From contig JABANN010000229.1 of NCBI GenBank assembly GCA_013115125.1, positions 1-50,409 of the forward strand: DNA of 50,409 nucleotides, written 5' to 3'. The notes beneath the pieces were generated by a model. That model ran no database searches. It had not been told where the DNA came from and worked only from the letters and a program-made list of their open reading frames with translations. Made by a program: the position numbers and the translations under genes. Below are positions 24,713 to 49,712 of this stretch, in pieces (position 1 is the stretch's first letter; every line of letters starts with the position of its first letter). Source of the stretch: Perkinsus olseni. Lineage: Eukaryota.

Positions 24713-24785
24713 GCCCGTCTAGCTCAGTCGGTAGAGCGCAAGGCTCTTAACCTTGTGGTCGTGGGTTCGAGCCCCACGGTGGGTG
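24713..24785 (+). tRNA. tRNA-Lys(CTT)
   Basis: GCCCGTCTAGCTCAGTCGGTAGAGCGCAAGGCTCTTAACCTTGTGGTCGTGGGTTCGAGCCCCACGGTGGGTG folds as a full cloverleaf with A and B boxes and anticodon CTT. A TTTT Pol III terminator follows at 24788-24791. Confidence 0.96.
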
Positions 24786-35937: not shown

Positions 35938-36647
35938 ATGCATCCCTTCCTCAATATTTGTTGTTCCTTTTCTGTTTTATTCGTGGACAGAATCGCCGTC
36001 TGTCCAACCCCGGACGGTGGCTATTCGACGTCCCGTGTCCTTCGGGCCAGATTTATGTCGAGCAGTAAGGTTCTCATTCACCTCTGTTTGTGGTATTGAG
36101 CATCCAGCTCATAGACTGTACTTCGAGGTTAGTAATCCCTCTTTTCGCGGTACCTCACTGATCACTAGTAACATTTGTAATTCGTAGTATATAGTAGGGT
36201 GTTCTTCTGTGCAGTTATCTGTCAGTTCCCGTCCTCGTGAGATTAGACTAGTGCTCCTAGATGGCTCATTTCCATCTGCTTCCACGGTGCCCAGCGTCGC
36301 GATCCATGGACGGCACTTGGACAGTTTTATGATGGGCTTGTGACAGCAGCGTTTTGCTGCTTGCCGCGTGAACTCTGAGAGTCAAGTTTAAGTTTCTCTG
36401 GGAGCCTCACAGACTAATGATGTTGTGTTGAGTGTGTTGATGTTGTGGTACGTGCAGAGATTTGATATTCCTTTCGTGAAGCGGTACTACTTGATTAAGA
36501 ATTAATTCTAGCATTTCACCCGCTCAACGCAAGTCAGGATTGAAGATGCTAGTAATCCATCTACTGCTACTACTGTGTGCTGAACGGCTAAATGAAAAAA
36601 TTGTGTTGAACAGCTAAAGGAAAAATTGGCTCTTTTCAAATTATCTA

Positions 36648-39483
36648 CTAAGCAACACTGCTCCTACGTTCGGTAGCAATCTTCGGTCTTCCAGAGCCGT
36701 AAGTGATCGCATGTATACATCCCAGTGATACCATAGACCATACCGAACATAGGGCCCCGTACGGTCCACCATAGAAGAGACCAACAAAAGAAAAAAGTAC
36801 GCAACGCCCCACTTCGTACGTAGCATTGCCATCGAAGAGAAAGCCTTGAGCAATGTAGGAAAATAGACTGTAAGCCGCCAAGACCACGTTGCGATCTGAT
36901 GACTCGAGTAGAAGTCCGCACAGAGTCGACACCAAGAATTGCACTGCGATGTATATCTTAACACCAACAGAGGCGGTCGTGCTGCGCGTTAGACGGGCAA
37001 GCCGGGGGGCTGGGGGACACACACGAGCAGTAGTGGTGGTGTAGTACCTAAGACGCGGCAAAATAGTAGTTAAGACGCCTACAAAACTCCGCTCACCCAG
37101 GGCCCTTCCACCAGGAACGTGACTGACGCGAGAATGCCTGTAACTGAAAAACACTGTCTACCCAAGATTTGCTGGGGACTGCCCAGCCATAAACACAAGC
37201 TGCTTGTGCGGGCTCCTTGAGGTATGTGCCTGCGGGCCATTCGATAGAGCGAGTATTGCGCGATGGCTACTGAAGGCTACCGAACAGTTTATCGTAGACC
37301 ACCAATGTTCCACCGAAGTTCTTGTGAAGACGTCTATCGTGGTGAATGCGATGGTTGGAGGGCGTCATCATTATCTCTTCCAAGGGCCATGGCAGAGACC
37401 CCACTATCGACGTATGGATCCAAAACTGGTACCTGAAGCGGCTCGAACTTTCATCCGAGTGAACAAGAGCCAAAAGCCTGGGTCTCAGTGGCTGATCCAT
37501 AAATGCTTATAGCGAACATTTATTGTGGTGCTACATTATGTTCCACGTACGATAGGTCATCGAGACGTCTGTAGGTACTCCGAGTACGGCAAGGGGAAGA
37601 TAGAACACCCAGCTGACGGCTTGCTGTAGATACCCTTGTCGAAGAGCCGTACCTGAACATGGGGAGCTTCGAAAGAAAGGGCCGCCCCGTGCCGTACTGA
37701 AATTGAAGTGCTCGCTGCTGTGATGATTGGCGTGACCCATCGCCCAGATGAATCCAATTTCATGAGACATCCGATGGAATGAATAGTAGCACAGCTCGAT
37801 CAGTGAGCCGAATATCAGCATCTTCATCCATTGCGGAGCCCCTGGCAAGGAAACACATTTTTTGACAAAAAACGTGAAAGTCTATAAAGGTTCTCACATG
37901 TCAGATCTAGATTCCCAATAGCGTAATTGTCATGTATGTAATCGTATCTGAAGTCGGAATGCGACCGTTTCTGCGGTTCATTGTCCACTTCCAGAAGAAA
38001 ATCGACGTCACCAGTTCAACACCTTATCGAACGGTCCATAGCACGGGACCCGACAGCGAATGCATGCGCCAAGGCGTGTTCAAAAACTTCGTGAACAACT
38101 TCACAGTCATGCATTTCCTGAACGGGTGAGCTTTTAAAGATGAAATTTCAAGGGAGCATCACCAATACAGTGGACAACAGTGTTGTCACAACAGCTGTGC
38201 CGAAGATGACGGAACGTTCGCCACACCTCGAAGACCCCGTGTACCATTCAAATTTCCGTTTCCGAAAGTATCACAATGGTGGGCGTTCCAATCGATAAGG
38301 GAAGGACCACACTTCGGTTCCCTCTTGCCCTCCTATGCTTACGCACGATTCTCCAAAGCTAACGAGATGGCGTGGGTGAGAAGCAAACAACTGGGTCATC
38401 GGGAACGACTAAAGTAAATTCCCTGTCCACAGGCAAGGGCAGCAGTTGATTGGCCTAGGGGGACCGCTGCTGGGCCTTGTGGGGCAAGTGTGGGGAAGGG
38501 AGGTAACAGGTAGCAGCAAGGTCGACTGCCCCTCGACATCTTGTTTTTGAAGAAAAACAATTGAGTGGTGCACATGGTCTCCGACGTACGGTTAACATTC
38601 AGCTTTGAGTAGCTACAGTCACCAGATGTCATTTTTGGCATGTGGCTTCCCCGTGACGTTCATCATATTCGCTCGAAATTACATCCCCAAGAACTTCAAG
38701 GTCGAGAAATTGCAAGGTCTTGAAGTTGTTGACGAGGGCGCAACCCATCTTGAACATGTCATACCACAACTTTCCCAACTTGATAGCACCGTAGCACGCT
38801 TTCATGGCGGACAACGATGCTCTTTATTGTATCTTACGCGTATACGTACACGACACAGGTTCCTAACGACGCACTACCTTGCGCTTCCAATTGGAAGACC
38901 GGAAACGAACTCGACGAGAGGCGGAACTCTCCCCTCGCATTCTTCATCTTACACGTATTCTTTGAGGGTGAATCTCTCGATGACCATAATGCTAAGAAGG
39001 ACGTCCATAGCACCAGCTGCAACAGAGGACCAGCAATCAGCTGCCTCATAGTAACTGAACGGCTCACGAAGGACTACTGGTCAAAAAAAAGCCTAGCACA
39101 TACCCCGATTCCGGTATCCAGTCTGACTCTGTCGATGAAGGAAGACGCCTCTTGTGAATATGCAGTATGATAAACTCGACGGCGATGAGGGCAAGATACA
39201 GGGGAATGGAGCCTTCAATGTAGTTGTAGTACACCAACTCCCCTAAACAAAAGTAGAAAACTCTCGCCATGGCCACAGCGGCAGCGACTGCGATAACTCC
39301 ACACTCAGACATGCTTTGCCCTACGATGATCGACGAATCAAGCGCGCCCCTACCGTTGCTGAGTTCCACAACCTTCCTCGGCACCAGGTACTCAGAGACC
39401 ACCAACGACACTACCAAAGCTATCACACACGCACTTGCTTCCCATCGCGGGAGGCTCCAAGGACGCTTAAACCCATTAACCAT
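36648..39483 (-). CDS. AGMO: Alkylglycerol monooxygenase-like fatty-acid hydroxylase/sterol desaturase family protein, multi-exon
   Basis: His boxes YYSFHRMSHE, HANHHSSEHFNFSTALRQ, YQFWIHT and TPSNHRIHH...NFGG...DKLFGT, followed by VYG and KGPG as in AGMO. N-terminal exons lie at 39483-38953 and there is a 1005-nt intron at 37948-38952. Confidence 0.85.
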
Positions 39484-39649
39484 CGTGAAGAACTACGACG
39501 ATAAACCTCATGCTTTCTCATAGAAGTTTACCAATGGAATCCACACTGTCCTACAGACAACCCTCGAGATCCAACAGACGGGAGGCGAATGAAACAAAAC
39601 CCCCTCCTGCCGGGTCGTATGAAGCTCCCCACTTGGCCTTCCCCTCTCC

Positions 39650-39905
39650 TTAATTAACACTGGGTGACTGAGACGTATAGACGCCCCGCCTGAGCTCTCA
39701 CCAGCGTCGTGTAAGAGCGGTTCCACCTAAGCTCCTCTACTGAATTGAAGAGGGCCCATCTCTAGCTACCGCGCCTGAAGGCTATGGCTCACGTAGAGAC
39801 CGAGGCACACGGCATTGGAAAATACCGTAGCAAAGGCACTCAGATGCACCAGTCGTGATCGGATATACGAAATACGCAGTCCTCCCACTCTGGTTAGCAT
39901 CTACT
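39650..39905 (-). promoter_or_regulatory. Conserved structured region downstream of TPP aptamer copy 1 (putative expression platform)
   Basis: Highly similar to 42779-43039 and 45703-45967. Contains conserved hairpins and an anti-aptamer strand at 39652-39674. Confidence 0.6.
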
Positions 39906-40007
39906 AGTTCGCTCCCTTCGCAGGCATTACCCTGGTCAGGTTCCGACGGTGATCTCTCAGCCGAGAGCCCTTCCCAGATGGGGTCGGTCTCAGCACCCGT
40001 GCGAACT
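39906..40007 (-). ncRNA. TPP riboswitch aptamer, copy 1 (3' region of SLC19 gene 1)
   Basis: Minus strand reads AGTTCGC ACGGGT GCTGAGA...TCTCGGC TGAGA GATCA CCGT CGGAA CCT GAC CAGG GTAATG CCTG CGA AGG GA GCGAACT. P1 (7 bp), P2, P3, the UGAGA motif, P4, P5 and the CGNAGGGA closure all match the THI-box consensus. Confidence 0.95.
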
Positions 40008-40161
40008 TAGTGTCCAATGACGATGATTAGAAAGGATTATAGAATCATACAAGTCTCATACATATCGAGACGAATCCAAAATAGCAATGCAAACGAAGTA
40101 CGGAAGACAGAAGAAAAAAGGAAGATGAACATCAGCGATTGTGAGAAGTAGCATCTCACTC

Positions 40162-41628
40162 TCACTTGGCACTCTCAGAAACATCAGTGGGGGTGACACG
40201 TCTCTTGGACCAGAAATACAATGCAACGGCTAAGACCATAAAGACTACCTGGAACGACAGTTGGAATACCCACAGTATCTTATAGACAATACGAAGATCG
40301 ATCTGGAACCAAGTGAACATGAAGAGGGAGAGAATCGTAGACAATATGTACGCAGTCAAGTTATTAAACATGACAATAATGGCATAACAACCCGAGTTGA
40401 CATTATCTTCCCCTTTAATATGTTTGTTAACAACACGGCCGGTCTCTGCGCTGACGAAGGCGTTGATGAAGTGATAACCCAGGTAGTAGAGGATAAAGCC
40501 GATACACATCGGTATGATACGATCATACCAAATCATTAGGGTCAGGGCTAGGATACACCAGATGCCCATGGCACCAACCGTCACATGCTGATGGTAATAC
40601 GCGACCTTCAGGATACGAGGCACAGCTACAGACAACGCACTGATGGAAGCAATGAGCTGAGCTATTGCAAAAACGGTACCGTTGTAGTTCTTCTCGGTAC
40701 CCTCCTCTACCATCATCATATCGTACAGCGAGGATTCGTAACCCTCAATAAGACCGTACGCGCAGTTGCCGAAGATCCACCAGAACAGAATAAGAGCGTA
40801 GACCTTGTCCTCGTACGCCAACTTCATAGTCTTCCACACCTCCTTAGGCCTCGGAGCTTTGTCTCGCTTGACACCGGTAAGAAACAGAGCAATAAAAGCA
40901 GCCACAATGACCGATGCCGCCGAGACCCACATGAGAGAAGTATAGCTCATGTGACAAGCATCGACCATGACATCGCCTACGATACCAGACAGCATATGAG
41001 AGAACACATAAGAGGCCAAATTCATCGATGTTAGTTTTTGGTAGTTTTCTTTGGGCACGACGTGGAAGAGGTAGCCGTAAAAGATTTCTTCAGCCGCAGT
41101 ACCGAAAGCGTACGTACACTGCATGATTTGCATGTCGAGTAGAGAACTACCGAACAACAACAGGAATCTTGTTGCTAGACGCCCCAACGCTCCCAGGATG
41201 AGCTCGAGCTTATAGCCAACGAACTCAGATAGGCAGCCGCCGACCAGTAGAAAGGGGATACACGCGTAGGTGCACCAAGGGTAGATTTGAGAGTTGATCT
41301 GATCATCAGTGAAGCCCTTGGTCTCTCTGAGGTAGGTCGTTAGATGGGGTTCGGATGGTATGAATGCCAGAAAAAAAGTGAAAGCACAGCATATAGTAGC
41401 CTCGTACCAAAAAGGCTTATATCCGTCAGGGCCGGTAGGGACCTTCCAATCACCATGCCAAAGACGTGCCCACACAGACTTCATCTTCTTCCCCTCTTCG
41501 GTATGCCCCGCTGAGGACCCGGCACCATCTTCCACGTCAACCATCTTGCTTATGATAGGCTGCTCGAGGCTACCTAAGCTGGCAGTATGGGCTGAAGAGA
41601 TGCTGCTTGAAGCACCACGTGATCTCAT
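40162..41628 (-). CDS. SLC19 / reduced folate carrier family transporter (probable thiamine transporter), copy 1
   Basis: Intronless multi-TM MFS-like ORF. PSEPHLTTYL...KGFTDDQINSQIYPWCTY matches the SLC19 N-terminal signature. The start was placed at MRSRG by homology with copy 2, although the ORF extends to 41715. Linked to a TPP aptamer. Confidence 0.9.
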   Translation of the reverse strand: MRSRGASSSISSAHTASLGSLEQPIISKMVDVEDGAGSSAGHTEEGKKMKSVWARLWHGDWKVPTGPDGYKPFWYEATICCAFTFFLAFIPSEPHLTTYLRETKGFTDDQINSQIYPWCTYACIPFLLVGGCLSEFVGYKLELILGALGRLATRFLLLFGSSLLDMQIMQCTYAFGTAAEEIFYGYLFHVVPKENYQKLTSMNLASYVFSHMLSGIVGDVMVDACHMSYTSLMWVSAASVIVAAFIALFLTGVKRDKAPRPKEVWKTMKLAYEDKVYALILFWWIFGNCAYGLIEGYESSLYDMMMVEEGTEKNYNGTVFAIAQLIASISALSVAVPRILKVAYYHQHVTVGAMGIWCILALTLMIWYDRIIPMCIGFILYYLGYHFINAFVSAETGRVVNKHIKGEDNVNSGCYAIIVMFNNLTAYILSTILSLFMFTWFQIDLRIVYKILWVFQLSFQVVFMVLAVALYFWSKRRVTPTDVSESAK

Positions 41629-42778
41629 GATTAAAAGTAAGCAATAAAACCGACTGGGAAAAATAATCCTTGCTACTACTCGTACTCCACCCTCATCACA
41701 GCGACCCGCATCCACGATCCGGATACGCTAAGGTATTCACACGAGCCACAAATCCTGTCCCCGCGGCTCAACACGCAGGGGGACAATTTCCTGTGTTGTT
41801 GACTACAGTAGTTAACAACAAGCAGCTTGAGAATCTCGAATTAGCCTTCACGCTACGGCCTAGAACACAGACGTATTGGTTCGCTGACAAAGCCACGCTG
41901 GGGACGTATTGCTCCCAGTCGTAGTAGCATAGAGAGTTTCCAGGAAGCTTTATCGCGAGCATTGTGCCCAAACGTGTAGCAACACAGCCGCACGACGTCC
42001 GATGAATATTAGGATGCCGACCGAGTGGCGTGGAGACACAAACAGGTGAAGGAGATGTAAAGTGGGAAGTTCATTCTGATTCCAGTTCCATCGGGCCACG
42101 AGCAGAGAATAGGCGTCACGGACCTCGGCGAGGGTGATGACCTGGGCGTGTATCGTCTGATGAACGTCAGTTTGGATGAGCAACACTGGCTTATGTCACG
42201 GAACAGTCTAACTATCGCAATCTTCGCTCGTCACACTCACGAAATTGCAGCAGGATTCGACCTCTTTCAAGGGACTTTCCGTCATAACTGCTGTATATTT
42301 GAACGGATACGGACAAAGTAAAGAATCAGCCCTTCACAAGAAAAAGTTCAGCACATCCGAAAAGCGAAGGCCCGCCCGATCTTTTAACGAGAGAAGAGCT
42401 TCTCGCCTGAGACACAGAGTGTGGAATCTTGGCGCTCAGTCACGTGTCTCTTTTGGCGTTGCCACCCGAGCTAAGCACGCTACCTATTGCTGTTGAACTT
42501 CATAACACCGGTGGCATCAACGGCATTAGGCGCCGAACAGACTTCCATTGAACAAAAGGAAGAACTGAACCGACAAACCATCCACTAACGAGAAGGAAAT
42601 CGGTGAAGCCTTCGAGGACCAATGTTACCCCAAGCCAGGGCTAGCATGGGGCTGCCACTAAAAGCATACCAATAAGGCTAGCTGAAGCACGACCCCATTC
42701 ATCCATTGCATGAAGAGATTCTCGCCTCTATGCACTCGTTCCCTAGCCGAATCGCGCACTTCCCCTGCTAATCTCCCC

Positions 42779-43039
42779 TAATTAACACTGGGTGGCTGAG
42801 CCGCTCACATGCCTTGACCGAGTTCTCACTAGCGTCGTATAAGCGCGGTTCACCTAAGCTCCTCTTCTTAATCGAAGAGGGCCCACCTCTAGCTACCGCG
42901 CCTAAAGGCTACGGCTAACGTAGAGTCCGAGGCACACGGCATTCGAAAATACCGTAGCAGAGGCAAAAGGCACTCAGATGCTCCAGTCGTGGTCGGACAT
43001 ACAAAATACGCAGTCCTCCCATTCTGGTTGGCATCTGCT
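42779..43039 (-). promoter_or_regulatory. Conserved structured region downstream of TPP aptamer copy 2
   Basis: Paralog of 39650-39905 with the main stems retained. Confidence 0.6.
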
Positions 43040-43142
43040 AGTTCGCTCCCTTCGCAGGCATTACCCTGGTCAGGTTCCGACGGTGATCTCTCAGCCGAGG
43101 GCCCTTCCCCCAATGGGGTCGGTCTCGGCACCCGTGCGAACT
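43040..43142 (-). ncRNA. TPP riboswitch aptamer, copy 2
   Basis: Same core as copy 1, with P3 GCCGAG/CTCGGC. Lies 120 nt after the stop of transporter copy 2. Confidence 0.95.
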
Positions 43143-43262
43143 TAGTGTCCAATGACGATGAGTAGAAAGATTTGTACGACAGCAATGTTAACAAAGAAGT
43201 ACAGAAGACGAAGATTGGCGGAAAAAATATCGTCGCCTATCAGGACGAGTAGCATTTCATTC

Positions 43263-44726
43263 TCAATCGCTACTCTTAACAACGTCAGCGGTGGCACGTC
43301 TTTTGGACCAGAAATACGATGCAACGGCTAAGACCATGAATACTGCCTGGAACGACAATTGGAATACCCACAGTATCTTATAAACATTACGGAGATCGAT
43401 CTGGAACCAAGTGAACATGAAGAGGGAGAGAATCGTAGACAATATGTACGCAGTCAAGTTATTAAACATGACAATAATGGCATAACAACCCGAGTTGACA
43501 TTATCTTCCCCTTTAATATGCTTGTTAACAACACGGCCTGTCTCTGCGCTGACGAAGGCGTTGATGAAGTGATAACCCAGGTAGTAGAGGATAAAGCCGA
43601 TACACATCGGTATGATACGATCATACCAAATCATTAGGGTCAGGGCTAGGATACACCAGATGCCCATGGCACCAACCGTCACATGCTGATGGTAATACGC
43701 GACCTTCAGGATACGAGGCACAGCTACAGACAAGGCACTGATGGATGCAACGAGCTGAGCTATTGCAAAAACGGTACCGTTGTAGTTCTTCTCGGTACCC
43801 TCCTCTACCATCATCATATCGTACAGCGAGGATTCGTAACCATCGATGAGACCGAAAGCGCAGTTGCCGAAGATCCACCAAAACAGAACGAGAACGTAAA
43901 CCTTGTCCTCATACGCCCACTTCATAGTTCTCCACACTTCCTTGGGCCTCGGGGCTCTATCACGCTTGACACTTGTGAGGAAGAGGGCAATGATAGCAGC
44001 AACGGTGACCGAAGCAGCCGAGACCCACTGAAGAGAGGTGTAGCTCATGTGACCAGCATTGAGCATGATATCACCAACTATACCAGACAGCATATGAGAG
44101 AGTACGAAGGCGGCCAAGTTCATCGACGTCAATTTCTGATAGTCCTTGTTGGCCACGACGTGGAACAAGTAGCCATAGAAGATCTTCTCAGCCGCGGTTC
44201 CGAATGAGTAAGTAACCTCTAGGATCTGCATGTGAAGTACAGTGGTACCGAACAACAAAAGGAACCTTGTTGCTAAGCGACCCATCGCTCCTAGAATAAG
44301 CGCCAACTTGTAGCCAACGAACTCGGACAGGAAGCCACCAATCAACAGGAAGGGTATACAGGCGTAGGTGGACCAAGGATAGATCTCTGAGTTGATCTGA
44401 TCATCCGTAAAGCCCTTGGTCTCTCTGAGGTAGGTCGTTAAATGGGGCTCGGAGGGCTTGAAGGCCAGGAAGAAAGTGAAAGCACAGCATATAGTAGCCT
44501 CGTACCAGAAAGGCTTATATCCACCTGGGCCGGTAGGGACCTTCCAATCACCATGCCAAAGACGTGACCACACAGTTCTCTTCGCCCTCTTCTCTTCAGG
44601 ATGTTTCTCAGAGAAGCTCGAACCATCTTCCACATCTAATGTCTTGCCGATGATAGGCTGTTCGAGACTATCAACACTGGCGGCATGGACTGAGGACATG
44701 CTGCTAGAAGCGCGACGAGACCTCAT
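43263..44726 (-). CDS. SLC19-family transporter (probable thiamine transporter), copy 2
   Basis: Intronless paralog with KPSEPHLTTYL...IYPWSTY. The first ATG is at 44726; the ORF-track start at 44732 is TTG. Confidence 0.9.
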   Translation of the reverse strand: MRSRRASSSMSSVHAASVDSLEQPIIGKTLDVEDGSSFSEKHPEEKRAKRTVWSRLWHGDWKVPTGPGGYKPFWYEATICCAFTFFLAFKPSEPHLTTYLRETKGFTDDQINSEIYPWSTYACIPFLLIGGFLSEFVGYKLALILGAMGRLATRFLLLFGTTVLHMQILEVTYSFGTAAEKIFYGYLFHVVANKDYQKLTSMNLAAFVLSHMLSGIVGDIMLNAGHMSYTSLQWVSAASVTVAAIIALFLTSVKRDRAPRPKEVWRTMKWAYEDKVYVLVLFWWIFGNCAFGLIDGYESSLYDMMMVEEGTEKNYNGTVFAIAQLVASISALSVAVPRILKVAYYHQHVTVGAMGIWCILALTLMIWYDRIIPMCIGFILYYLGYHFINAFVSAETGRVVNKHIKGEDNVNSGCYAIIVMFNNLTAYILSTILSLFMFTWFQIDLRNVYKILWVFQLSFQAVFMVLAVASYFWSKRRATADVVKSSD

Positions 44727-45702
44727 GTTCAAATGGGACCAAGCAATTCGACTGTGAGTGAACTCTCACGCTATGGTGGGGTTATGCGTCACAATTTCTG
44801 TCCCTCGGGAGCCCAGAGGTAAAACACGCAACAATACAGCTAGCTCGACTAGTGGCCTCTTACCGGCGTACGGAGACTCACAGTTATCTACAAATCAGAC
44901 TCGCTCCGAACGTGAGGCCCGCCCGAGGCGCCCTAGGGTATTCCAAAAAAGCATTTTCCAGAGAATCCACCCCAAGAGGTGTTATCACCAACTACAGAGA
45001 AGTAACGCTAAGGAGACTCACAACCCTGACATGCACAATGGCGTCAGGCCACAGTTGAGTGTCGACTCTGTAACTCAAGACTGGCCAGGCTTTGGTTTCA
45101 CGTGCATGCTCTTGTGCATGCGTGCTATCAGGCGCGGGCGTCACGCTGGAAAATGTCCAGTGACTCTCCACCGGAGAGGTCCGCGGGTCGCCGGACTCGA
45201 GCCTCCCATCCTCGAAGCTTTGGGAAGGACGAACCTCGAAATCTACGGGGTAGGAGTTAACGTACAAACCGGAGTCGACTAACGGGAACCCTGTAGTGTT
45301 TCGGGCTCGCAGGACCTGCGGAACTCGGGGAGCTCGCATGCAAGGGAAGAGCCGCTAACGAAGCGGGCGATGACTCAACCGCATTCAATATTGTCAGAAT
45401 GAAGTTGTCAATCACCCTAGACCAGCCTGCTATCGCTCCATTAGAGATTGTTCCACAGAGTGCTAAAAGCTCACGCTCAACTGTGGTTCCCCTGGACCGT
45501 CGGCAGCCTAGTCCAATATACTCCTCGTCCGCCGTTAACCTTCATTGTGTGACACGCCTAGGAAGCCATCAACTCCACTGTCACGGACAGCATATACACG
45601 CTAGCTCTCTAGTGGGCAAGGGACCCGAAGTATCATTCAAGCTATCCCTCCCCCAAGACTAATTCCGTTCCGACGGGTCAGAACCTCCCTAATAACCCCT
45701 TC

Positions 45703-45967
45703 TTAATTAACACTGGGTGACTGAGACGTGTAGACGTCCAGCCTGAGCTCTCACTAGCGTCGTTCAACAGCGGTTCCACCTAAGCTCCTCTACTGAATTG
45801 AAGAGGGCCCACCTCTAGCTACCGCGCATGAAGGCTACGGCTAACGTAGAGTCCGAGGCACACGGCATTGGGAAATACCGTAGCAAAGGCAAAAGGCACT
45901 CAGCGATGCACCAGTCGTGATCGGATATACGAAATACGTACTCCTCCCACTCTGGTTGGCATCTACT
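45703..45967 (-). promoter_or_regulatory. Conserved structured region downstream of TPP aptamer copy 3
   Basis: Paralog of 39650-39905. The anti-aptamer strand at 45705-45727 is identical to copy 1. Confidence 0.6.
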
Positions 45968-46070
45968 AGTTCGCTCCCTTCGCAGGCATTACCCTGGTCA
46001 GGTTCCGACGGTGATCTCTCAGCCGAGAGTCCTCCCCCAAATGGGTTCGGTCTCAGCACCCGTGCGAACT
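45968..46070 (-). ncRNA. TPP riboswitch aptamer, copy 3
   Basis: Same core as copies 1 and 2, with variation confined to P3. Lies 172 nt after the stop of transporter copy 3. Confidence 0.95.
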
Positions 46071-46242
46071 TAACTTCCTGTTGTTGTCGAATACACAGAA
46101 TTATGCACCGAAAACCGTGAGACAAGGAATCATACACCGCGATGGGTGATGATAGAAAAGTACACAGAAAATGTGCGAATGATAAAGACGCACACTACCT
46201 CGACGGCAGACCTCGTCGAAAATGACGGAAAGGATCGCGACC

Positions 46243-47673
46243 TCATGTGGTGCTCTCAACAACATTGGGAACAGAGTTCCTCTTAAGCCAGAAATATAGC
46301 AGTACAGCCAAGATCATGAAAACTACCTGGAACGACAGCTGCAATACCCACAGTATCTTATAGACAATACGAAGATCGATCTGGAACCAAGTGAACATGA
46401 AGAGGGAGAGAATGGTAGACAAGATATACGCAGTTAAGTTATTGAACATGACAATAATGGCATAGCAACCCGAGTTGACATTATCTTCTCCTTTGATATG
46501 CTTGTTAACAACACGGCCGGTCTCTGCGCTGACGAAGGCGTTGATGAAGTGATAACCCAGGTAGTAGAGGATAAAGCCGATACACATCGGTATGATGCGA
46601 TCATACCAAATCATTAGGGTCAGAGCTAGGATACACCAGATGCCCATCACCCCCACGGCCAGGTGCTGGTGATAATATGTGACTTTCAATATCCGAGGCA
46701 CTGCCACGGACAAGGAGCTAGCGGAAGCAACAAGTTGAGCAATAGCAATGACGGTCCCGTTGTAGTTCTTCTCAGTGCCCTTGTCAACCATCATCATATC
46801 ATAAAGAGAGAACTCGTAAAGCTCGACAAGAACAAAAACACAGTTACCGAGGACCCACCAGAAGAAGATGAGTGCGTAGACCTTGTCCTCATACACCCAC
46901 TTCATAGTTCTCCACACCTCCTTAGGCCTGGGGGCCTTATCACGCTTGACACTGGTCAGAAAAAGAGCTACTATAACAGCTAGCAAAACTGAGCCGGCTG
47001 AGACCCATTGCAGAGAAGTACAGCTCACGTGACAAGCATCGAGCAAAACATCGCCAACTACACCGGACAACGTATGAGCGATGGCATACGTAGCTAGGTT
47101 CATAGAAGTCAATTTCTGATAATTCTCGTTGGAAACGACGTGAAAAAGATACCCATAGAAGATCTTCTCGGCAGCTGTCCCGAATGCATAAGTAATCTCC
47201 ATGAACTTCATCTCGGTCACGGTAGTACCAAACAAAATAAGCGCCCTCATAGTTATTCGACCCAACGCCCCCAAGATGAGCGACAACTTGTAGCCGACGA
47301 ACTCGGACAGGCAACCACTAATCAACAGGAAGGGTATGCAAGCGTAGGTATTCCAAGGATAGATCTCTGAGTTGATCTCTTTATCAGTAAAGCCCTTGAT
47401 CTCTCTTAGGTAGGTCGTTATATGCGGATCAGCCGGCTTGAAAGCCATGAGGAAAGTATAAGCACAGCAGAGTGGAGCTTCGTACCAGAATGGCTTGTAT
47501 CCATCTGGACCGGTAGGGACCTTAAACCCACCGATCCAGGTGTCGAACCACATGGCCCACTTTTTCTCGTCAAGTTGCTTCACGGGCGACCCAACGCCAT
47601 AATCTGCATATGAAGTTTCGCTTACGGCAGGCTGCTTGAGGCTCTGAGTAGTAGTAATATTGGTAGAAGACAT
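46243..47673 (-). CDS. SLC19-family transporter (probable thiamine transporter), copy 3
   Basis: Intronless and more divergent paralog (KPADPHITTYL...IYPWNTY). The position homologous to the paralogs' ATG is TTG (47700) and the first ATG is at 47673. Confidence 0.88.
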   Translation of the reverse strand: MSSTNITTTQSLKQPAVSETSYADYGVGSPVKQLDEKKWAMWFDTWIGGFKVPTGPDGYKPFWYEAPLCCAYTFLMAFKPADPHITTYLREIKGFTDKEINSEIYPWNTYACIPFLLISGCLSEFVGYKLSLILGALGRITMRALILFGTTVTEMKFMEITYAFGTAAEKIFYGYLFHVVSNENYQKLTSMNLATYAIAHTLSGVVGDVLLDACHVSCTSLQWVSAGSVLLAVIVALFLTSVKRDKAPRPKEVWRTMKWVYEDKVYALIFFWWVLGNCVFVLVELYEFSLYDMMMVDKGTEKNYNGTVIAIAQLVASASSLSVAVPRILKVTYYHQHLAVGVMGIWCILALTLMIWYDRIIPMCIGFILYYLGYHFINAFVSAETGRVVNKHIKGEDNVNSGCYAIIVMFNNLTAYILSTILSLFMFTWFQIDLRIVYKILWVLQLSFQVVFMILAVLLYFWLKRNSVPNVVESTT

Positions 47674-47980
47674 GCCGCTGGACGCACTTGAAGATCTCAA
47701 AACTACTAGGAATAGATTGAAACCGACGAGGAAAAAAACCTTTCATCGTGAGTAGGGTACTGTTCGGGAACATAACCGAACTTCAAAGAGTTTTCAAATG
47801 GATAGCCATAGTACATCATTTCACGGCAGGTGAGATACGGGTGGAAACTTCCCGCCTAGCGTCCCATCTCACAATTCCTGTCCCTCGGCAGCTGGATGTT
47901 GCAACTAATGTGGAGCAGAGACGTACTCGTAGAACGCAAGATACGAGAGACTGCTGACGAAGGGTGTATACTACTTGAGA

Positions 47981-48083
47981 TGGTAGAAACCAACTGTCTG
48001 TCGTACAGGCTGTAGCTATGTCAGCGACTTAAGAAAAATAAGAGAGAGAGCAAGATAGCAAGACAAGCTTCCGCTCATCAACA
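47981..48083 (-). repeat. 3' LTR (starts TGTTG; distal end at ...CTACCA is tentative)
   Basis: Follows the PPT. 48000-48083 is the reverse complement of 50326-50409 with 2 mismatches in 84 nt. Confidence 0.8.
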
Positions 48084-49712
48084 TTCCCCCGCCGCGGAAG
48101 TAATCATCTTGAGGTTACCGATGTACTCATACAACAAAGAAGGGGAGTTGATGGGAGAGATAACAGCTACACAGCCCTTAATGGCTCTCACAACATAGAC
48201 AGTACCAGTGAGCCATTTCTGGCTTAACTTGTTACGACCGTGATTGTAACGAAGAACGTGATCTCCCACCGATAATGTAGAGAAATCAGACCGAGCGATA
48301 GAAGCATCACCGAAAGTGGATCGAGCACGAAGGATAGCATCCTCATTCTCAGCGCTCACCTGGATCCACTTACAGTCAGAAGATACTCGAGACGCAACAT
48401 CACGAAGCAACTTGTCAGCATCAGCCCGGTCTGGCATCCTCAAAGGGATATGATGATCGAGACTGTCAGCAGCCTCCTTGGATAGGGTACGACCTGGTGC
48501 CATCGAGGGAGGTAAGCATCTTCCGTGAACATAGTGTAGGTCACTACTATACGTCGAAGAGGACAGAGAAGACCTGACAATGTTGTTCACAATGAAGCAG
48601 ACCCTCGGCATCAAAGCCGTCCAACTAGCAGCGTTGCCATTCTGCTGAATGAGGCAACGTAACATAAAATTTACAAGACGATGGCGGGACTCGTGCCAAC
48701 CGTTCAGACGACTAGCATGGCCGACACTCCTCGCCCATCGAATACCCAGAGCACGACTCCATATCACTGCACCTAGGTTAGTAAAGCGGGCATCAGCATC
48801 AGATAGTAGCCCCAATGGATAACCATGGGCTTGGAAAATACTTTCGAGCCCGGCCAACAAGAGATGAGTGGGTGCGTAGTGAGGGATTATAGCATGAGCT
48901 ACATATCCAGTCACAACGTCCACCACCAACAAACACATCAAAGAGTCGTGATACGGAGAACGGCAGCCCTCTTGCTTGTAGGGTCCTAGGAGGTCAATCC
49001 CTAGGAGCTCCCAAGGCTGGGTAGCCTTGAGCAGCTGAGACCCCAAAACATGAGAGACGGTACGAGTATTACGTTGAGCACGGCAAATGAGACAACGCCG
49101 TTGAGCTCGCAAATACTCAGAGAGAGGACCAGCGTCGAAATCAAATTTGACAGACCTATACAGCTTATAGGCCCCTAAGTGAGCATAATACAGATGAAGC
49201 CTATCACAAACTTCACGCCTCAGTTCCCGAGGAACAGCTCACCCGCGAGTAACCGAGTTCACCACATAGGCCTTCAACGGGTCTCCGGAAGCATCAGCAA
49301 CAACAGAGTACTTGCGGAGAGTCCTAGCATCGGCCTTCGAATTACAAGAAGGGTCCAAGAGGGGCTTGAAATCAGAATCATCCCTCTGCTTAAGCTTAAC
49401 ATAATCTTTCAATGGTTTAATAATACTAGGATCATCCTCAATTGCAGTCAGCAACTTCGATATGATCGTATCATCACTTAATTTCACACAGTCGCTACTG
49501 CCAGGGCGAAGACGAGCTTGACGAACTGCTTCAATCAAAAGCGGGTCAGCACAGGGACAGCATCGGAGAGAGAGACCTCGCGAATAACAGTCACTTGGAT
49601 TCCTCTTGCCAGCCAGATGGAAGACTCGACCACCATATGGTACCAGCAGCTGGGCAATTCTGAATTTTGGGAGTGTCGCAGGGCGAGCGACGATTGAGCG
49701 GAGCGCAGCCAT
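48078..49712 (-). pseudogene. pol (RNase H-integrase) pseudogene with one in-frame TGA
   Basis: ORFs 49239-49712 and 48078-49112 are in the same frame, interrupted only by TGA at 49239-49241. RT and gag are absent upstream. Confidence 0.85.

Follow-up and report, generated by a model that had tools for sequence, protein, structure and literature searches.

A candidate long-range anti-aptamer strand behind thiamine pyrophosphate aptamers in the 3′ untranslated regions of three Perkinsus olseni transporter genes

All eukaryotic thiamine pyrophosphate (TPP) riboswitches characterised so far are stated to act via cis-splicing (Llavero-Pasquina et al. 2022, PMC9544697), and of the aptamers in the 3′ untranslated regions (3′ UTRs) of intronless protist genes it has been written that they 'may operate in an as yet undocumented manner' (McRose et al. 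2014, PMC4260697). How an aptamer in such a position could act is the question raised by a contig of Perkinsus olseni. The DNA analysed, referred to here as the window, was the whole of the 50,409-nt contig JABANN010000229.1 (assembly GCA_013115125.1). It holds three tandem intronless genes of the SLC19 type, each a single open frame on the minus strand with a TPP aptamer behind the stop codon; they are numbered copies 1–3 by rising coordinate. TPP aptamers of Perkinsus are already known, and what is new here is a candidate long-range switching strand behind them. We tentatively propose that each of these modules is a 3′-UTR TPP riboswitch and that the strand provides the outer arm of its long-range anti-aptamer helix; the empty aptamer would be invaded and the TPP-bound aptamer would not, so that processing of the transcript would differ and the transporter would be lowered. 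This interpretation was partly supported by the analysis described below; it is plausible but unproven.

The three aptamers were identified by cmscan with the Rfam model RF00059, the gathering score of which is 54.3 bits (Table 1), and all of them covered the full model (positions 1–105 of 105). The alignments showed P1, P2, P3, P4, P5 and the GCUGAGA motif, and P3a was absent, as in eukaryotic examples. The aptamers are predicted to bind TPP and may have a regulatory role. They are located in the transporter 3′ UTRs, 152, 118, and 170 nt past the stop codons of copies 1, 2, and 3, respectively, and an Rfam E-value scan of 39450–40170 matched TPP as the sole family. The proteins of all three copies exceeded the curated cut-off of 27 bits of the Pfam family PF01770 (Folate_carrier, SLC19), and the best protein matches of the copy 1 transporter came from P. 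olseni (95%) and Perkinsus marinus (80%). The SLC19 family includes thiamine carriers, and the three genes are presumed thiamine transporters, with the substrate suggested by the riboswitch.

An earlier reading of the same DNA, made from the letters alone (the sequence-only reading), had singled out a strand lying about 230 nt past each aptamer, identical in copies 1 and 3 and variant in copy 2. A search of the window with the strand pattern returned exactly three matches, at the predicted positions (Table 1), and none in 100 shuffles; in each copy the strand starts 222–228 nt past the aptamer. It ends a conserved block of about 360 nt, here called the module, which begins about 15 nt before the aptamer. 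Paralogue identity was 0.62–0.98 inside the block and fell to 0.26–0.36 right after its end, ...CACCCAGTGTTAATTA, confirming that conservation stops directly behind TTAATTA. In an alignment of the repeat units, the upstream intergenic DNA was unalignable, the coding sequence (CDS) was 0.5–0.9 identical, and identity was 0.22–0.5 in the CDS tail and in the spacer that precedes the aptamer.

The pairing of the strand with the aptamer 5′ strand AGUUCGCACGGGUGCUGAGAC was calculated with RNAduplex. The results showed a helix of 19 bp, interrupted by two bulges and one mismatch, with an energy of −25.7 kcal/mol for copies 1 and 3 and of −17.7 kcal/mol for copy 2, and when 23-mers were sampled from the window (both strands, modules excluded), 1 of 13,984 paired equally well. 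The best duplex of the native platform, i.e. the ~250 nt behind the aptamer, was −26.6 kcal/mol in copies 1 and 3, and was matched by 15 of 2000 dinucleotide shuffles of the copy 1 platform and by 11 of 2000 in copy 3. When the whole aptamer 5′ half was set against the platform, 5 of 500 shuffles were as good as native copy 1. The pairing of about 20 bp with two bulges and one mismatch, claimed for every aptamer, therefore exceeded chance in copies 1 and 3; in copy 2, the match was at chance level. As the sequence-only reading had also noted, the CTCAG(T/C)C part of the strand can alternatively pair with GGCTGAG; by inspection, this pairing includes one G-U pair in copies 1 and 3 and is perfect in copy 2. 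An ungapped inverted-repeat search did not detect the strand/aptamer helix because of its bulges.

Two further observations on long-range pairing concern individual copies. Copy 2 has a long-range pair of its own, 42810–42821 with 43119–43130 (12 nt, 83% complementary), which joins a variable platform segment to the P3 5′ strand with copy 2's own C. A copy-specific pairing between the P3 5′ strand and the variable segment was considered as a candidate and rejected as too weak, the cognate combination being the best one for copies 1 and 2 and not for copy 3.

The predicted folds of the modules contained the helix. In the minimum free energy (MFE) structures of all three modules (−150.0, −155.0, and −144.7 kcal/mol in copies 1, 2, and 3), the last ~70 nt of the block paired, in nested order, with nearly the whole aptamer 5′ half, and the strand itself paired with the 5′ strands of P1, P2, and P3. 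In the inner part of this 3′ arm, CGGGG.GUCU paired with the P3 3′ strand, the second CUCAG with CUGAG of J3-2, GGUGA with UCACC (P2 3′ strand), CGAC with GUCG, and CGCUC with GAGCG (P1 3′ strand), while P4/P5 remained a local hairpin. The centroid kept the outer helix together with the CUGAG-CUCAG pairs and some of the UCACC-GGUGA pairs, and in the RNAalifold consensus of the three copies the outer helix was present along with most nested helices. The module MFE of −150 kcal/mol compared with −128.6 ± 5.0 kcal/mol for shuffles (z = −4.24; 0 of 100 as low). For pairing of 21 aptamer nt with the final 30 nt of the block, the mean probability was 0.93, 0.70, and 0.89 in copies 1, 2, and 3. Of 150 cells (50 long-range pairs in three copies), 93.3% were paired, as compared with 30–46% in slid controls, a figure favoured by the derivation of the 50-pair structure from copy 1.

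Enforcing the aptamer fold cost 12.8 kcal/mol in copy 1, 4.0 kcal/mol in copy 2, and 11.6 kcal/mol in copy 3, and shuffled platforms were as costly (MFE version) in 1 of 60 cases for copy 1 and 3 of 60 for copy 3. A nanomolar ligand could pay an energy cost of the order of 4–12.8 kcal/mol. The two mutually exclusive folds that had been predicted are thus present in silico, in the MFE, centroid and RNAalifold structures. In MFE folds of the growing chain, the aptamer helices flickered, and P2 and P3 were lost in all three copies once the strand had been made, at +244 to +264 nt, a model behavior that would fit a kinetic, co-transcriptional switch.

The RNA evidence consisted of assembled contigs of four runs (X7, X8, X12, and X13); rare forms are dropped from such contigs, and these came from samples of unknown thiamine status. 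Run X8 is a transcriptome, with spliced introns, a spliced-leader tail, and 12 of 30 bins uncovered (intergenic DNA and most of copy 3). Run X7 covers 30 of 30 bins and may hold DNA, and its contig 44537–45860 across the copy 3 strand was not counted as a transcript. In X8, record 20 (39997–40324) joins the end of the copy 1 CDS to the aptamer, and record 19 extends without a break from 40026 to 39353 and then through spliced downstream exons, crossing the aptamer, platform, strand and TTAATTA; it has five differences, at 39966–39992 near its end, which match the letters of copy 2. The strand is transcribed, contiguous with an aptamer. There was no splice joint inside any of the three modules in the contigs of the four runs.

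We suggest that the element could work as follows. In each transporter 3′ UTR, a ~360-nt module would be closed by a 3′ arm of ~70 nt, the outermost part of this arm being the strand. The aptamer, being transcribed first, could fold and bind TPP before the 3′ arm emerges some 220–250 nt later. If the aptamer is empty, the arm would invade it by nested pairing with the 5′ strands of P1, P2, and P3, with the 3′ strand of P3, with CUGAG in J3-2 and with the 3′ strand of P2, and the module would become one long interrupted hairpin. A TPP-bound aptamer would resist invasion, leaving the arm to fold locally. The two states would then differ in processing just behind the helix, where two YAG sites (Y, pyrimidine), UUAAUUA and a G-rich flank are found; the output might be a choice of 3′ end or the use of a splice acceptor, and TPP would be expected to turn the transporter down. 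Operation, direction and output of this switch are our interpretation.

Several results weigh against this proposal. The complementarity of copy 2 was at chance level, since 1075 of 2000 platform shuffles reached its native best duplex of −19.4 kcal/mol (21-nt strand); both copy 2 changes inside the outer helix break pairs, and non-cognate combinations of aptamer and strand pair better than copy 2's own. The match of the aptamer 5′ half to the platform was not exceptional in copy 2 (175 of 500 shuffles as good) or copy 3 (126 of 500), and the cost of enforcing the aptamer of copy 2 was matched by 15 of 60 shuffled platforms. Since copies 1 and 3 share an identical strand, their complementarity counts as one observation; complementarity above chance in two mutually dependent copies, and not in copy 2, amounts to moderate support. 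Covariation was absent among the copies: 1 of 50 long-range pairs changed on both sides, 336 of 500 shuffles scored as high, and RNAalifold found compensatory changes in 0 of 125 pairs, with a covariation term of +1.91. Effectively, then, the switching model has a single observation of complementarity behind it and no covariation. The divergent 5′ and 3′ flanks showed no copy-specific pairing preference.

The claim that formation of the TPP aptamer releases the strand also fared poorly. With 20–50 nt of flank added, the probability of the strand being unpaired in the free and in the aptamer-enforced state was 0.21 and 0.30 in copy 1, 0.27 and 0.29 in copy 2, and 0.47 and 0.39 in copy 3. As accessibility was nearly equal in both states, a step in which release exposes the AGs was not borne out in silico. 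Neither was there evidence for the suggested use of these AGs as a 3′ splice site or polyadenylation signal, as the contigs of the four runs showed no splice junction at CTCAG or CCCAG of the strand and no spliced-leader or poly(A) loose end there. A contig spanning two genes does not prove a single molecule, and the depth in X8 may stem mostly from the downstream gene. The 3′-UTR TPP aptamers of diatoms, moreover, gave no response to thiamine (Llavero-Pasquina et al. 2022, PMC9544697).

The conservation of the block itself can be read in another way. In the C-terminal part of the CDS, 95 of 120 third codon positions did not vary, as compared with 104 of 242 in the N-terminal and middle parts, which indicates that gene conversion acts in the array, and block conservation therefore need not mean selection on the strand. 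A tract of ~350 nt near the 3′ end of the CDS (40250–40609) is 94–100% identical across the copies, either by gene conversion or by a nucleotide-level constraint of other origin. It is conceivable, although in our judgement somewhat unlikely, that the block was homogenised by gene conversion after tandem duplication, that its complementarity is incidental or the relic of a partial inverted copy of the aptamer, and that the strand has no switching role; the aptamer would then act otherwise or not regulate at all, as with the 3′-UTR aptamers of diatoms (Llavero-Pasquina et al. 2022, PMC9544697). The different grouping of the copies in the module, (1,3),2, and in the CDS, (1,2),3, agrees with this explanation, as do the missing covariation and the pair-breaking, chance-level match of copy 2. 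It accounts less well for the same sharp block ends in three copies, from the aptamer to TTAATTA, between flanks of 0.26–0.5 identity, or for the last 16 nt, CACCCAGTGTTAATTA, which are invariant between a variable stretch and an unalignable flank although copy 2 has 10 changed positions in the surrounding 62 nt. Nor does it predict complementarity that 11–15 of 2000 shuffles reach in copies 1 and 3. The shared block ends and the invariant last 16 nt, as far as an alignment of three paralogues can indicate, favour selection.

Selection on the block end would not need to act through pairing. The invariant end (YAG, YAG, UGUUAAUUA and the G-rich flank) could itself be a processing or protein-binding signal, for instance a cleavage/polyadenylation element or a cis- or trans-splice acceptor, with the pairing irrelevant. 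The six acceptors mapped in the locus consist of YAG followed by U or G, and a cis acceptor, GUCUCAG/G, and a spliced-leader acceptor, CUCACAG/UC, resemble GUCUCAG/UC of the strand. G-rich sequence is found within 12 nt past TTAATTA in all three copies, although it cannot be aligned, and the spliced-leader acceptor of the next gene lies merely 160 nt past the copy 1 block. As described above, however, the contigs showed no junction, spliced leader or poly(A) end at the AGs of the strand; YAG is too short a motif to carry weight, a literature search by title found no description of a Perkinsus poly(A) signal, and the aptamer match of −25.7 kcal/mol would be left unexplained. We regard a signal of this kind as unlikely.

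A variant of the switch combines both ideas: TPP would free GUCUCAG/UC and CCCAG/UG as a spliced-leader acceptor in the 3′ UTR, and the coding part would become a discarded outron without a poly(A) site. This is quite improbable. If true, such a trans-splicing output would need no cis intron and could explain the 3′-UTR TPP riboswitches of intronless protist genes. Trans-splicing occurs in the locus: loose ends reading ...CTTGGCTCA on the RNA strand abut a genomic AG at 47704 (X7) and at 44753 (X8). A review gives the dinoflagellate/Perkinsus spliced leader as ending in ...UUGGCUCAAG, with which these tails agree. The mRNAs of copy 3 and copy 2, respectively, begin at these two acceptors.

The position of the module between two genes raises the further possibility that it belongs to the downstream gene and resides in the precursor of that gene before spliced-leader addition. 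Perkinsus mRNAs receive a spliced leader, the X8 contig joins the copy 1 module to spliced exons of the downstream gene, and its depth of 56.9 exceeds the depth of 1–20 of the copy 1 CDS. The contigs of the downstream gene stop at its acceptor, 39494, in X7 and X12. The distance of the module from the stop codon upstream is nevertheless short and fixed, as given above, while the distance to the next acceptor varies (about 160, at least 1140, and about 950 nt). The gene after copy 1 is an unrelated FA_hydroxylase-like gene, and the Rfam scan of the window found no aptamer upstream of copy 3. An assignment of the module to the downstream gene is the least probable of the explanations considered.

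Coverage in the vicinity of the modules was uneven. In X8, the copy 2 CDS had a depth of 12–25 and the letters of the aptamer were covered, with a depth of 0 over the platform at 42713–43013, and contigs end just before the aptamer in copy 3 (46096, X12) and in copy 1 (40025, X13); such holes and ends prove nothing. The coverage holes, if real, would mean that mature mRNAs end before the strand. Down to 40025, which is 15 nt short of the aptamer, the X13 contig agrees exactly with the unique 3′ UTR of copy 1; it then continues with 34 letters that are absent from the 50-kb window; these could represent a strain variant without the module, a distant joint or a chimera. A GT..AG joint of 77 nt at 42406–42482 (minus strand), ~300 nt past the copy 2 module, appeared in run X7 alone, one side being as short as 27 letters, and hints at spliced read-through or intergenic transcripts.

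The long-range anti-aptamer helix proposed here has a partial precedent. In Neurospora crassa NCU01977, a TPP aptamer takes part in long-distance pairing (Li & Breaker 2013, PMC3597705). The two cases share pairing between a conserved distal element and one part of a eukaryotic TPP aptamer, over ~530 nt in NCU01977 and, in silico, ~220–330 nt in P. olseni, and the competition between ligand binding and long-distance pairing described in that work is the logic that we propose. Unlike in P. olseni, the partner in NCU01977 lies upstream, beside the 5′ splice site of an intron in the coding region, and the output is alternative splicing. In P. olseni, the gene is intronless and the partner is found downstream, in its 3′ UTR; no splicing was seen there, nor the intron that defines the Neurospora system. 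The description of the element as a distinct 3′-UTR expression platform is fair; a long-range partner of a eukaryotic TPP aptamer has, however, been described before.

Plant THIC provides a second comparison, having like P. olseni an aptamer without P3a in the 3′ UTR, where control of 3′-end processing or stability, with TPP lowering expression, would be expected. Work by Wachter and colleagues in 2007 reportedly described two splice sites, a 5′ one that the empty aptamer masks with its P4/P5 side, and a 3′ one located in P2. In P. olseni, unlike in THIC, a distal downstream strand targets the 5′ side of P1–P3, and no 3′-UTR intron was evident in the contigs of the four runs. Bacterial TPP riboswitches use anti-terminators or anti-sequestors, with a competitor no more than tens of nucleotides away, by which a terminator or ribosome-binding site is gated. 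The proposed platform resembles these in having a downstream strand that competes for aptamer strands within a co-transcriptional time window; it differs in that the competitor is >220 nt away, in a eukaryotic 3′ UTR.

The diatom aptamers are also predicted 3′-UTR aptamers, and no sign of alternative splicing was seen in the THIC 3′ UTR tested (PMC9544697). Alternative polyadenylation was proposed as their mechanism (PMC9544697). The diatom aptamers, unlike those of P. olseni, keep the P3a stem and have a poly(A) motif predicted to overlap P1, and the passages dealing with them describe no long conserved downstream platform (PMC9544697).

TPP aptamers of P. marinus are in print (McRose et al. 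2014, PMC4260697), and McCown 2017 counts seven of them. They belong to the same genus and aptamer class as those described here, of which they are very likely orthologues or paralogues; the main-text passages of these reports name no gene, platform, mechanism, downstream block or strand. Our literature search, which did not cover supplements, found no platform or mechanism for Perkinsus TPP aptamers. The exact 38-nt core had no match in the genome contig collection searched, and a protein search with the open frame through the aptamer, aimed at spurious gene calls on Perkinsus contigs, gave no match. A degenerate aptamer pattern run over metagenome contigs returned 6 loci, all of them bacterial-looking (GC content 0.37–0.69) and rejected as Perkinsus orthologues. 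In these loci, the aptamer lies ~60–160 nt upstream of an ATG-initiated frame, and 4 of the 6 match the Perkinsus core over 49–50 nt.

Perkinsus is an alveolate parasite of molluscs (shellfish). A long platform with sharp boundaries, and in it a concrete switching helix that can be tested, occurs here as three natural replicates in a trans-splicing alveolate. If the helix is real, it would provide a defined model for how the 3′-UTR aptamers of intronless protist genes work, and would link a vitamin sensor to thiamine uptake in a mollusc parasite that appears, as far as can be deduced, to depend on such uptake. If it is not, the lesson of the locus would be that, in an array with gene conversion, conservation among paralogues provides weak evidence of a functional RNA.

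Table 1. Positions of the transporter genes, TPP aptamers, candidate strands and neighbouring elements in the window
Feature	Positions	Strand	Remarks
SLC19/Folate_carrier gene copy 1	40162..41628	minus	stop codon 40162–40164; PF01770 E 3e-49, 168.3 bits
SLC19/Folate_carrier gene copy 2	43263..44726	minus	spliced-leader acceptor AG 44753–44752; PF01770 E 4.9e-53, 180.8 bits
SLC19/Folate_carrier gene copy 3	46243..47673	minus	spliced-leader acceptor AG 47704–47703; PF01770 E 8.7e-48, 163.5 bits
TPP aptamer copy 1	39896..40010	minus	RF00059, 62.1 bits; without P3a
TPP aptamer copy 2	43030..43145	minus	RF00059, 62.4 bits
TPP aptamer copy 3	45958..46073	minus	RF00059, 61.8 bits
Strand of copy 1, GTCTCAGTCACCCAGTGTTAATT	39652..39674	minus	3′ end of conserved block; candidate outer anti-aptamer arm
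Variant strand of copy 2, GGCTCAGCCACCCAGTGTTAATT	42780..42802	minus	duplex with own aptamer strand −17.7 kcal/mol
Strand of copy 3, same as copy 1 (GTCTCAGTCACCCAGTGTTAATT)	45705..45727	minus	23 nt
Inner part of 3′ arm, copy 1	39675..39712	minus	duplex −33.8 kcal/mol; equivalents about 42803–42840 and 45728–45765
Platform middle, copy 1	39713..39895	minus	several local hairpins; 162 of 182 ungapped columns invariant in three copies
Multi-exon gene right behind copy 1 module	about 36600–39492	minus	acceptor AG 39494–39493; ATG 39483

The platforms of copies 2 and 3 contain GCCGTAGCC (42907–42915 and 45833–45841, minus strand), where copy 1 has GCCATAGCC. The dinoflagellate-type spliced leader (DCCGUAGCC...) begins with the same 9 nt. 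The motif has 2 matches in the window as compared with 0.29 expected, and 3 of 100 shuffles gave at least 2; the likeness is probably a coincidence. In the gene downstream of copy 1, GT..AG introns at 39055–39103 and 39242–39352 were present in all four RNA runs, and a Pfam match to FA_hydroxylase, a family unrelated to the transporters, was found at 37534–37881. Upstream of copy 3, a 386-aa open frame (48078–49238, minus strand) had no Pfam match at E 0.01. A tRNA gene is located at 24713–24785 on the plus strand (Rfam, 64.7 bits).

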